NCBI RefSeq assembly: GCF_003334305.1
Contig: NZ_QOWS01000046.1
Reading direction: 5' to 3' (one strand)
DNA: 7,574 nucleotides
DNA from: Escherichia coli
Lineage (GTDB): Bacteria; Pseudomonadota; Gammaproteobacteria; Enterobacterales; Enterobacteriaceae
The translations under genes were made by a program, and so were the position numbers. Positions 1-7,574 of the stretch are shown piece by piece. Numbering within the stretch: position 1 is the first letter of the stretch; every line of letters starts with the position of its first letter. The notes beneath the pieces are model-generated. The model ran no database searches. It saw nothing but the letters and a program-made list of their open reading frames with translations, and was not told where the DNA came from.

Positions 1-66
1 ACGGCGCTGTGTCTGGCATGCCTGCAATCCGGGAAACCGGACCAGGAAAAAACTTGCAGGCCATAA
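1..66 (+). CDS. Possible 3' end of an upstream plus-strand gene, tentatively nlpE (C-terminal 21 codons plus stop)
   Basis: Frame 1 is open from the window edge to TAA at 64-66 and translates TALCLACLQSGKPDQEKTCRP*. The cysteine-rich tail (CxxC) and the position convergent with yaeF fit the nlpE-yaeF arrangement in E. coli. All three frames are open here, so frame choice is weak. Confidence 0.35.
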   Translation, partial: TALCLACLQSGKPDQEKTCRP

Positions 67-112
67 CAGTATCTACAGCATATAATGCAACATTTTGAAT
101 TAGCACGATTTT

Positions 113-147
113 GTAGGCCGGATAAGGCGTTTACGCCGCATCCGGCA
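113..147. repeat. REP (repetitive extragenic palindromic) element
   Basis: gtaggccggataaggcgtttacgccgcatccggca matches the canonical E. coli REP consensus (GCCGGATAAGGCGTTTACGCCGCATCCGGC) with an imperfect palindrome. It lies in the intergenic space between convergent genes, a typical REP location. Confidence 0.85.
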
Positions 148-170
148 TTTTGTGCACGAGGCTGGCTTTA

Positions 171-994
171 TCACTGAGTCAGCCCAACAAAGCGACCCGC
201 CTTGATATAAATCCCAGGCTTCAGGTGCCCAACATACTGTAACTGCGTTTCTGGCTTAAACGCAGAGACATCACCAATACGCATATGCATCAGATCGGCA
301 GGGCTAATCCAGCCCGATTGCGCCAGTGTAAGTGGATGCCCGGCTTTGGCAAAGGCATCCGTGACAAATTCCGAACAAAACCACGACTTTTTGTCTCCTT
401 CGCCCACACTGCTTAACTGCGCTTTCGCCAGGCCGCTGACGCACTTTGGCGAAAATCCTCGGAGAACGGATTCAGTGAGCACATCTGGCGAGTCACCATA
501 AAGGGAATAAATTCGACAATGCCGCGATAGTTATAACCGCTATCTTTGATTTTATTGGCAAACGCGGTGATATCTGTGGCTTGTTGCGGGGTAAGATCCG
601 GGACTCGTAAGACGAAAAGCTTATCACTATGCTTCATCGCTTTTTTAAGGGAAACAATCTGGACGCCAGCGCCTGTCGCTTCTGCAACGTTATTATCACC
701 CAGAAAGATTGCAACGTGACTCACAGAGGAAGTGCTGAAGACGCGGATTCCAAATGAGGTTACCCCAAGGCTTGAGGAGAACAGCAAATCGCCGGGTTTG
801 AGATCAGGTGCCGTTATTTCTTTTATTGATTGTTCGGTGAAAGAGCTTTGATGCTGGAATTTGACAGCCCATGTTTTTGCCTCGGCATCTACTGCTGTGG
901 CTGATGGGTCTGGCTGGCTGATATCAACGGTACAAGCCGAAAGTAAAAGAAAGCTGGGGAGAAACAGGCGGCAGTACGCCTTTGGTTTATCCAT
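171..994 (-). pseudogene. yaeF: yaeF-like lipoprotein (permuted NlpC/P60-type putative peptidase), interrupted by a frameshift in this sequence
   Basis: Two overlapping minus-strand ORFs in different frames (413..1048 and 171..482). The upstream one starts MDKPKAYCRLFLPSFLLLSAC (signal peptide plus lipobox LSAC) from ATG at 992-994 and stops at TAA 413-415. The downstream one carries the Cys motif WFCSEFV and runs to the stop at 171-173. His-containing and Cys-containing segments fall in separate frames. Span 171..994 is 824 nt, not a multiple of 3. Confidence 0.8.
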
Positions 995-1010
995 TTTATA
1001 CAATCCATGT

Positions 1011-1038
1011 AAAAAAAGGGCCCTGAAATTCAGGACCC
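1011..1038 (-). terminator. Rho-independent terminator of proS
   Basis: Read on the minus strand: GGGUCCUGA-AUU-UCAGGGCCC, a 9-bp stem with one G-U pair and a 3-nt loop, followed directly by U7 (plus-strand a7 at 1011-1017). It begins about 10 nt downstream of the proS stop. Confidence 0.8.
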
Positions 1039-1047
1039 TTTCTGGCA

Positions 1048-2766
1048 TCAGCCTTTAATCTGTTTCACCAGATATTCGACGATGTCACCAGTCTTAATTA
1101 ACTGTTTCTCGCCGTTGCGACGATATTTATATTCGATATCGTCGTTGTCGAGGTTACGGTCGCCCAGCACAATAGTGTGCGGAATACCGATCAGTTCCAT
1201 ATCAGCAAACATCACGCCCGGACGCTCTTTGCGGTCATCCAGCAGCACTTCGATACCTTGTGCACGCAGTTCGCTGTACAGTTTCTCAGCAAGCTCTTGT
1301 ACGCGGAAGGATTTGTGCATGTTCATCGGCAGAATCGCCACCTGGAACGGCGCGATAGCGTCAGGCCATACGATGCCTCGTTCGTCGTAGTTCTGCTCAA
1401 TCGCCGCAGCTACCACACGCGTTACCCCGATACCGTAGCAACCCATCGTCAGGATTTGGTTACGGCCATCTTCACCCTGTACGGAGGCTTTCAGTGCTTC
1501 GGAGTACTTGGTACCCAGCTGGAAGATGTGACCAACTTCGATACCACGTTTGATCAGCAGCGTACCCTGGCCATCCGGGCTTGGATCGCCAGCCACCACG
1601 TTACGGATATCTGCAACTTCCGGGGTAGCGACATCGCGATCCCAGTTGATGCCGAAGTAGTGTTTACCATCGATGTTAGCACCAGCAGCGAAATCACTCA
1701 TCGCCGCAACGGTACGGTCAATCACCACCGGAATCGGCATGTTTACCGGACCCAGTGAACCCGGACCGGCTTTAACCACGGCACGAATTTCTTCTTCGGT
1801 CGCGAAAGTCAGCGGGCTTGCAACCTGCGGCAGTTTTTCTGCTTTAACTTCGTTCAGCTCGTGATCACCGCGCACCAGCAGCGCAACCAGCGGGAAGCTA
1901 CTGCCTTCAACCGCTTTAACCAGCAGAGTCTTAACCGTTTTCTCAATCGGCAGATTGAACTGTTCAACCAGTTCCGCGATGGTTTTCGCGTTCGGCGTAT
2001 CAACCAGCGTCATTTCCTGGGTAGCAGCAGCGCGCGGTTCTTTCGGCGCGATAGCTTCTGCCAGTTCAATGTTCGCTGCATAGTCAGAGGTGTCGGAGAA
2101 GACCACATCGTCTTCACCGCTCTGCGCCAGCACCTGGAATTCGTGAGAGGCGCTGCCGCCGATAGAACCGGTGTCGGCTTGTACGGCGCGGAAATCCAGC
2201 CCCATGCGGCTGAAGATTTTGCTGTAGGCCGCATACATTGCATCGTAGGTTTCCTGCAGGGATTCCTGAGAAGTATGGAAAGAGTAAGCATCTTTCATCA
2301 GGAATTCGCGGGAACGCATGACGCCGAAACGCGGACGCACTTCGTCGCGGAACTTGGTCTGGATCTGATAGAAGTTCAGCGGCAGCTGTTTGTAAGAGCT
2401 AAGCTCGTTACGAATCAGGTCAGTGATAACTTCTTCATGAGTTGGGCCGAGTACGAACGGACGCTCGCCACGGTCAACAAAACGCAGCAGTTCCGGACCG
2501 TACTGTTCCCAACGACCACTCTCTTGCCACAAATCAGCTGGCTGAACCACCGGCATCGACACCTCGATCGCACCGGCGTTGTTCATCTCTTCACGCACGA
2601 TGTTTTCGACTTTTTTCAGAACGCGCACGCCGGTCGGCAGCCAGGTATATAACCCGGAGGCCAGCTTGCGGATCATCCCGGCGCGCAGCATCAGCTGATG
2701 GCTGATCACCTCGGCGTCGGCAGGTGTCTCCTTGAGAGTGGAGAGCAGGTATTGGCTAGTACGCAT
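1048..2766 (-). CDS. proS: Prolyl-tRNA synthetase (class II aaRS with INS editing domain), 572 aa
   Basis: The 590-aa ORF contains the recognisable ProS sequence starting [20 protein letters not shown] at an internal ATG (2764-2766), giving 572 aa. The 18 upstream in-frame codons are treated as non-coding leader. Confidence 0.96.
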
Positions 2767-2877
2767 GTTGTTACGGTTCCAGTTGGAAGGTAGAACAGGC
2801 TCAAGGCGAGCCTGGGACAAAAAAAAGTGATTTAGTTTACCAGTGCAAAAGAAATGTCAAAAGAGAAGGGCGTGAAT

Positions 2878-6710: not shown

Positions 6711-6742
6711 GGATGTTAAGGCATCCAGACGTCTAAATCAAT
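6711..6742. promoter_or_regulatory. MetJ operator (met box) region in the metN promoter
   Basis: Perfect met-box octamer AGACGTCT at 6727-6734, flanked in 8-bp register by degenerate copies (aggcatcc, 5/8; ggatgtta, 4/8). It lies about 90 nt upstream of the metN start codon. Confidence 0.55.
6713..6741 (-). promoter_or_regulatory. Candidate sigma70 promoter of metNIQ
   Basis: On the minus strand: -35 TTGATT (6736-6741), 17-bp spacer, -10 TAACAT (6713-6718). The perfect met box lies inside the spacer, consistent with repression by occlusion. Confidence 0.4.
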
Positions 6743-6823
6743 CAGGTTTATGCGAAGAGCACTTTCTTGCAGGTCGAAACATGCGATACTAGCGTCACAT
6801 GCCTTATTAAGGAGCTATAAAAG

Positions 6824-7396
6824 GTGGCGAAGAGCGTACCCGCAATTTTTCTTGACCGTGATGGCACCATTAATGTCGAGCACGGCTATGTCCATGAGAT
6901 CGACAACTTTGAATTTATCGACGGTGTTATTGACGCCATGCGCGAGCTAAAAAAAATGGGCTTTGCGCTGGTGGTAGTAACCAACCAGTCTGGCATTGCT
7001 CGCGGTAAATTTACTGAAGCGCAGTTTGAAACGCTGACCGAGTGGATGGACTGGTCGCTGGCGGACCGCGATGTCGATCTGGATGGCATCTATTATTGCC
7101 CGCATCATCCGCAGGGTAGTGTTGAAGAGTTTCGCCAGGTCTGCGACTGCCGCAAACCACATCCGGGGATGCTTTTGTCAGCACGCGATTATTTGCATAT
7201 TGATATGGCCGCTTCTTATATGGTGGGCGATAAATTAGAAGATATGCAGGCAGCGGCTGCGGCGAACGTGGGAACAAAAGTGCTGGTGCGTACGGGTAAA
7301 CCTATTACGCCTGAAGCAGAAAACGCGGCGGATTGGGTGTTAAATAGCCTGGCAGACCTGCCGCAAGCGATAAAAAAGCAGCAAAAACCGGCATAA
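6824..7396 (+). CDS. gmhB: D-glycero-beta-D-manno-heptose-1,7-bisphosphate 7-phosphatase GmhB (HAD superfamily), GTG start
   Basis: ORF (M)[24 protein letters not shown]... with HAD motif I DRDGT. RBS AGGAG at 6810-6814, 9 nt upstream of GTG at 6824. Stop TAA at 7394-7396. Recognised as GmhB/YaeD. Confidence 0.93.
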
Positions 7397-7397
7397 T

Positions 7398-7412
7398 GAT
7401 TAAAAGATGAGC
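7398..7412. promoter_or_regulatory. Candidate Fis site (site I, centred near -71 of rRNA P1)
   Basis: gattaaaagatgagc: 15-bp G...C-bounded element with an A/T-rich core, centred at 7405, about 71 bp upstream of the predicted P1 start. Confidence 0.4.
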
Positions 7413-7437
7413 AATTGAAATAAAAATGCATTTTTCC
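7411..7437 (+). promoter_or_regulatory. UP element of rRNA operon P1 promoter
   Basis: A/T-rich tract gcaattgaaataaaaatgcatttttcc immediately upstream of the -35 hexamer (-40 to -60 region), as in rrn P1 promoters. Confidence 0.6.
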
Positions 7438-7439
7438 AC

Positions 7440-7476
7440 TTGTCTTCCTGAGACGACTCCCTATAATGCGCCTCCA
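7440..7476 (+). promoter_or_regulatory. rRNA operon P1 promoter (rrnH-type): -35, -10, GC-rich discriminator and start site
   Basis: -35 TTGTCT (7440-7445), 16-bp spacer, -10 TATAAT (7462-7467), discriminator GCGCCTCC, predicted +1 near 7476. Near-identical in layout to rrnB P1 (TTGTCA-16-TATAAT-GCGCC). Confidence 0.85.
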
Positions 7477-7549
7477 TCGACACGGCGGATGTGAATCACT
7501 TCACACAAACAGCCGGTTCGGTTGAAGAGAAAAATCCTGAAATTCAGGG

Positions 7550-7574
7550 TTGACTCTGAAAGAGGAAAGCGTAA
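7550..7574 (+). promoter_or_regulatory. rRNA operon P2 promoter, truncated by the window edge
   Basis: ttgactctgaaagaggaaagcgtaa: -35 TTGACT (7550-7555), 16-bp spacer, and the window ends on TAA, the first 3 nt of the expected -10 TAATAT. Lies about 75-100 nt downstream of P1, as in rrn operons. Confidence 0.7.

Follow-up and report, generated by a model that had tools for sequence, protein, structure and literature searches.

The nlpE-rrnH segment of an Escherichia coli chromosome: known housekeeping genes, a frameshifted yaeF and the right end of IS621

The window analysed here, which is the whole 7,574-nt stretch of Escherichia coli DNA under study, is almost certainly the chromosomal segment running from nlpE to rrnH, with known genes performing known functions and with the right end of the insertion sequence (IS) IS621 at bases 1-72. 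As compared by megablast over its whole length (7,574 nt) with 5426 complete E. coli genomes, which form the basis of the genome counts given below, the window was found in all 5426, and one place covers at least 80% of the query in 5424 of them. Several genomes are 100% identical to it over all 7574 bases, including that of strain A7 (NZ_CP028767.1, 924609-932182). The PGAP annotation of A7 places yaeF (labelled 'frameshifted'), proS, tsaA/trmO, rcsF, metQ, metI and metN on the minus strand and gmhB on the plus strand. In the NCBIfam scan all eight genes match equivalog or subfamily models above the curated cut-off and have the expected lengths, and the matches extend over the full profile length except that of YaeF, which is split. 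The open reading frames (ORFs) are thus recognisable housekeeping genes of expected length, as the initial annotation had stated. Its description of a contiguous, conserved core-genome locus holds for the collinear bulk of the window, but not for bases 1-72, which belong to IS621. Everything in the window is already known; the locus is ordinary housekeeping DNA in which one gene is a pseudogene, and it holds no novel system.

Base 1 of the window lies inside the 3' arm of a hairpin located just past the stop codon of a recombinase gene. In A7, this gene is annotated by PGAP as 'IS110-like element IS621 family transposase' and ends 33 bp before window base 1, so that the earlier statement that there are no integrases is literally true of the window but misleading for the locus. 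The recombinase ORF of A7 (locus L001 1987-2967, outside the window) encodes 326 aa and matches NF033542 ('IS110 family RNA-guided transposase') with 254.5 bits, where the cut-off is 140, in keeping with the DEDD/Ser recombinase gene expected of an IS110-type element. The A7 element consists of 1277 nt, or 1279 bp with the CT core, and has a left non-coding end (LE) of 191 nt and a right non-coding end (RE) of 105 nt, the RE, the LE and the 2-nt core adding up to 298 (locus L001 1796-3072). These dimensions agree with those published for IS621, namely 191 bp for the LE and 298 bp for the RE-LE (PMC11208160).

According to the initial annotation, the whole window (1-7574) is uninterrupted core genome, in which the leftmost non-coding stretch represents a terminator and a repetitive extragenic palindrome (REP). 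It is true that 99% of the window behaves as core genome, and that a hairpin arm and a REP are present within the first 170 bases. However, bases 1-72, when searched alone, occur in only 1678 of the 5426 genomes (31%), in 1-27 copies with a median of 8, and are absent from the remaining 3748 (69%). With window 1-200 as the query, 693 genomes span the junction between IS621 and the chromosome at nlpE-yaeF, while most genomes match from base 73 only. As the empty site described below also closes exactly at the CT core, the uninterrupted-core reading is refuted and is regarded as highly improbable.

The left junction of the element in A7 reads ATCAGGC-CT-TGTATTAT and the right junction ACAGTAT-CT-ACAGCAT, where the CT core is present at both. 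In strain WEM25 the site is empty and reads TTATCAGGCCTACAGCATATAATG (locus L003 1188-1215), which equals the left flank of A7 joined to the window from base 73. In its longer context (...GCGCTTATCAGGCCTACAGCATATAATG...) both flanks are colinear and share one CT, i.e. the site is scarless, and the target reconstituted in WEM25 is ATCAGGCCTAC, located inside a REP. The natural target of IS621 has been described as ATCAGGCCTAC in REPs, with a CT core and with ATA/TAT triplets flanking the donor (PMC11208160). Window 1-72 is identified as the end of an IS621 insertion because the WEM25 site closes at the CT and restores ATCAGGCCTAC. At the left edge, the WEM25 and K-12 alignments thus show an insertion relative to reference genomes, the finding that the initial annotation had named as contradicting its reading.

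According to the literature on this element (Durrant et al. 2024, PMC11208160; Hiraizumi et al. 2024, PMC11208158) and to the junctions above, IS621, a member of the IS110 family whose recombinase is guided by a bridge RNA from the left end, was inserted scarlessly at the CT core of the REP ATCAGGC-CT-AC in the nlpE-yaeF spacer. The source genome probably carries a complete IS621, as A7 does, with the recombinase gene and the bridge RNA just upstream of window base 1. Three points weigh against this interpretation. The window itself contains neither the recombinase gene nor the left end, and we infer the completeness of the element from identical genomes. IS621 and its IS110-family relatives encode a bridge RNA (about 177 nt) in the LE, and here a candidate for it is recognised only by position, length and likeness to the published sequence; a search of the A7 IS621 copy (locus L001 1700-3200) with Rfam 15 returned no match to a bridge-RNA family and only the REP. 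In addition, the alignment with K-12 covered both ends of the window and the region of the yaeF frameshift, and feature coordinates were compared elsewhere.

In the source genome, bases 1-72 might instead be a remnant of IS621, solo or truncated, and not the end of a complete, active element, as the window starts inside the RE and nothing in it shows the remainder of the element. This is considered very unlikely, as the window is 100% identical to A7, where IS621 is complete (1279 bp, with the intact 326-aa ORF), and as the copy at the same site in strain K99B is identical over all 1277 nt.

The RE also contains a candidate promoter element. In the reconstructed junction of the circularised element, the hexamer TTGCAG of the window is located 17 nt upstream of TATTAT in the LE. 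Circularisation of IS621 has been reported to restore a sigma-70 promoter whose -35 box is in the RE (PMC11208160), and the hexamer in the window is likely to be that -35 box. The whole 105-nt RE (A7 locus L001 2960-3075, of which window 1-75 is the 3' part) folds with -43.8 kcal/mol (z = -4.1 versus shuffled sequences). Its first hairpin is located just past the recombinase stop codon, while the second, long hairpin pairs GCCTGCAA with TTGCAGGC, the latter containing the putative -35 box. The fold may simply be that of an mRNA 3' end.

The REP which serves as the IS621 target (REP1) is the first of two REPs in a bacterial interspersed mosaic element (BIME) and is split by the insertion, so that only its last bases, 73-76, are in the window. 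The second REP is intact, and its hairpin has a folding energy of -20.9 kcal/mol (z = -3.2). The REP-derived Rfam family naRNA4 matches at 116-185 on both strands with 46.1 and 29.6 bits, which is below the gathering score of 59.5. The region from base 77 or 80 to base 147 recurs about 30-40 times per genome (median 33 places), and it is because of this intact second REP that searches with the whole window and with window 1-200 return about 30 places per genome.

The second departure from an intact locus is in yaeF, a member of the YaeF family of permuted papain-like enzymes, for which the initial annotation had reported a frameshift; this is borne out. As aligned with the intact yaeF of WEM25, the gene in the window has a 1-nt deletion at window 445/446, corresponding to gene position 550 in codon 184, and a stop codon follows 10 codons on. 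The K-12 sequence at this place is gcactgttggcg, and that of the window is gcactttggcg. Profile NF008552 is matched at positions 1-170 and 180-274 in two different frames, and no full-length match in one frame was found.

A sequencing error or a programmed ribosomal frameshift might also be considered in place of pseudogenisation, since only one base differs and strong matches to the YaeF profile persist in both halves. Nevertheless, the exact 61-bp allele around the deletion is present in 1197 of the 5426 genomes, which were finished independently, and PGAP flags yaeF as frameshifted in both A7 and SWYH.B349aT. No homopolymer run and no slippery heptamer of the form X XXY YYZ is present at the site, which reads CGCCAA-AGTGCG on the gene strand, and a programmed frameshift was rejected on these grounds. 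An error or a programmed shift is thus scarcely credible. The frameshift in yaeF is real, and the sequence marks the gene as a common lineage allele and a pseudogene of the YaeF family, predicted to be a non-functional member. In permuted NlpC/P60 enzymes the catalytic cysteine is located in the C-terminal part (SWFCSEF motif), which is encoded downstream of the shift. A null allele is therefore predicted, with YaeF activity presumably abolished through loss of this part.

The U-run of the proS terminator ends about 16 nt before the start codon of yaeF, so that a separate yaeF promoter would hardly fit between proS and yaeF (window 994-1048). Given this tight spacing, yaeF would therefore be transcribed from within the 3' end of proS or by read-through.

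The insertion and the frameshift occur in all four combinations. A7, like the window, has both IS621 at the site and the yaeF frameshift, K99B has IS621 without the frameshift, SWYH.B349aT has the frameshift without IS621, and WEM25 has neither. A spliced query for the IS621 junction together with the frameshift found 468 genomes, versus 693 with the IS at the site and 1197 with the frameshift allele. A strict functional link between IS621 and the yaeF frameshift was rejected, since all four combinations exist.

The K99B copy (L004 264-1540) occupies the same REP site as that of A7. The flanks of K99B and WEM25 are nearly identical: the 200 nt to the left of the site show 0 differences, and the 1300 nt to its right show 1. 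The IS is present in the former strain and absent from the latter. The flanks of A7 belong to another haplotype (about 2% divergent; 5 differences to the left of the site, 27-28 to its right), and yet the IS copy of A7 is identical to that of K99B. On the simplest reading, these comparisons suggest that IS621 has repeatedly been guided into this REP by RNA, or excised from it without scar, while a short recombination tract may also explain how the same IS621 copy came to stand on differing flanks. That the nlpE-yaeF REP is a natural hotspot, at which IS621 is recurrently inserted or scarlessly excised, is proposed only tentatively, and we consider it rather doubtful. If it is true, and each event arose independently rather than through a short recombination tract, sites of this kind could serve to gauge the activity of bridge recombinases in wild E. 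coli. The hotspot reading extends known IS621 biology and does not amount to a new system.

Table 1. Features of the window, with coordinates, strand and basis of assignment
Feature	Coordinates	Strand	Basis
IS621 RE, distal 72 nt of the 105-nt right non-coding end	1..72	+	IS621 coding sequence of A7 ends 33 bp before base 1; copy number; alignment break at 73
TTGCAG, likely -35 box of a sigma-70 promoter across the circularised RE-LE junction	54..59	+	Reconstructed circle junction
IS621/chromosome junction	63..76	+	ATA sub-terminal triplet 63-65; left donor half ACAGTAT 66-72; CT core 73-74; right target half AC 75-76
Intact REP, second REP of the BIME (approximate limits)	112..148	.	Hairpin fold; naRNA4 match; repetition per genome
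yaeF pseudogene (YaeF family permuted papain-like enzyme)	171..994	-	PGAP 'frameshifted'; NF008552 split
Intrinsic terminator after proS, GC-rich hairpin then U7	1011..1044	-	Fold -21 kcal/mol, z = -4.4
proS, proline--tRNA ligase, 572 aa	1048..2766	-	PGAP; TIGR00409, 940.9 bits, full length
tsaA/trmO, tRNA m6t6A37 methyltransferase, 235 aa	2878..3585	-	PGAP; TIGR00104, 207 bits
rcsF, Rcs stress-response lipoprotein, 134 aa	3582..3986	-	PGAP; NF008048, 229.5 bits, profile 1-134/134
Intrinsic terminator after metQ	4046..4069	-	10-bp stem with 7 GC pairs, then T-rich tail
metNIQ methionine ABC (ATP-binding cassette) transporter operon	4104..6636	-	PGAP; NCBIfam
metQ	4104..4919	-	NF008285, full length, above cut-off
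metI	4959..5612	-	NF008049, full length, above cut-off
metN	5605..6636	-	TIGR02314, full length, above cut-off
Perfect met box AGACGTCT in the metN-gmhB divergent promoter region	6727..6734	.	5/8 box adjoining at 6719-6726
gmhB, heptose 1,7-bisphosphate phosphatase, 190 aa	6824..7396	+	PGAP; TIGR00213
rrnH upstream control region	7397..7574	+	A/T-rich upstream stretch, P1, P2 -35 box

The remaining features (Table 1) are those expected of this part of the chromosome, with rcsF and tsaA overlapping by 4 nt. The account of the non-coding stretches as terminators, promoters and a REP in the initial annotation agrees with the two intrinsic terminators, the rrnH promoter and the intact REP, but fails for bases 1-72. 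A MetJ operator is defined by two or more tandem 8-bp boxes resembling AGACGTCT upstream of a met gene, and here the perfect box is adjoined by a partial one. The metNIQ operon is under MetJ control. As met boxes in the window are at chance level (2 found versus 2.1 expected), the tentative assignment of this box to MetJ rests on its position upstream of metN and on this known control.

At the right edge, the last codon of gmhB in K-12 (CAA) is replaced by TAA (7394-7396), and the terminal glutamine is lost. The rrnH promoter P1 consists of TTGTCT and TATAAT separated by a 16-nt spacer (7440-7467) and followed by the GC-rich discriminator GCGCCTCC; with 10 of 12 positions, it scores highest among the promoter matches in the window. 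P2 is represented by its -35 box (TTGACT) at 7550-7555, and the window ends before the corresponding -10 box. In A7 the 16S gene starts 186 nt past the window end (window-equivalent 7760), and over its last 178 bases the window shows 98% identity to the K-12 sequence that precedes rrsH. Rfam family Ysr197 ('Yersinia sRNA 197', sRNA being small RNA) matches the rrnH P1-P2 promoter and leader at 7393-7574 with 86.7 bits (E = 7e-20), the match being partial at the window end; this family seems to model the rrn operon leader rather than an independent sRNA gene.

The composition of the window is unremarkable, with a GC content of 0.44-0.57 in 400-nt windows, the minima of which are at intergenic promoter regions, and a third-position GC content (GC3) of 0.51-0.61 per gene. 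A foreign or atypical segment was rejected on the basis of these values and of the presence of the region in essentially all E. coli. Within the window, the tRNA search found none, no tandem array scored above the trivial level, no dispersed repeat exceeded 28 nt, and no riboswitch was found; at a permissive threshold, Rfam matched only naRNA4 and the partial Ysr197. The antisense ORFs, such as 1861-2652 opposite proS, and the long ORF extensions in the six-frame list were rejected as shadow frames or extensions of real genes.

The absence of repeat arrays and of a compositional break reported in the initial annotation was thus confirmed, and its verdict of an ordinary region with no novel system is supported by every test. 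IS621 is a well-studied genome-editing system, and its original description is said to be that of Choi et al. 2003. Since the element is already well characterised, its recognition changes how the first 1% of the window is described but not the low-interest verdict. The window is of low priority and can be set aside, and the result matters little, except as an illustration that the end of a mobile element can hide at the edge of a window, where it is unrecognisable by eye.

Among known systems, the closest to the window as a whole is the segment b0193-b0200 of K-12 MG1655 (yaeF-proS-trmO-rcsF-metQIN-gmhB) with the rrnH promoter, which has the same genes in the same order and on the same strands, and spacers of equal length (53, 111, 117, 39 and 187 nt). 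Gene lengths are also the same, except for the 1-nt deletion in yaeF and the CAA to TAA change that removes the last codon of gmhB. The GmhB protein differs from that of K-12 by two substitutions (D19E and V145A) in addition to the missing terminal codon. The 3' end of gmhB and the rrnH P1/P2 region are 98% identical to K-12, with four single-nucleotide polymorphisms between the gmhB stop codon and the P1 -10 box, in the A/T-rich upstream region and the P1 spacer. The right-edge promoter is of the rrn P1 type: its two hexamers are 16 nt apart, A/T-rich DNA precedes them, a GC-rich discriminator follows, and the 16S gene begins about 290 nt downstream.

The comparison with K-12 proposed in the initial annotation thus agrees in gene order and spacers, but the REP/BIME spacer between nlpE and yaeF differs in architecture. 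K-12 has no IS621 in this spacer, lacks the REP that serves as the IS621 target and has an extra REP adjoining yaeF (window 77-170 versus K-12 locus 3990-4180). Even where no IS is present, the spacer is thus a replacement that varies from strain to strain. With the REPs and BIMEs of E. coli, the spacer shares an imperfect palindrome forming a stable hairpin, tens of copies per genome and an intergenic position between the convergent nlpE and yaeF, and differs in that one of the two REPs is interrupted by IS621. From IS621 there is no difference in kind, the part inside the window being limited to the final 72 nt of the RE, with neither the recombinase gene nor the bridge RNA. This copy shares with IS621 the CT core, the REP target ATCAGGCCTAC, the scarless junctions, the LE of 191 nt and RE of 105 nt, the ATA triplet beside the left donor half, and a multi-copy, strain-variable presence.

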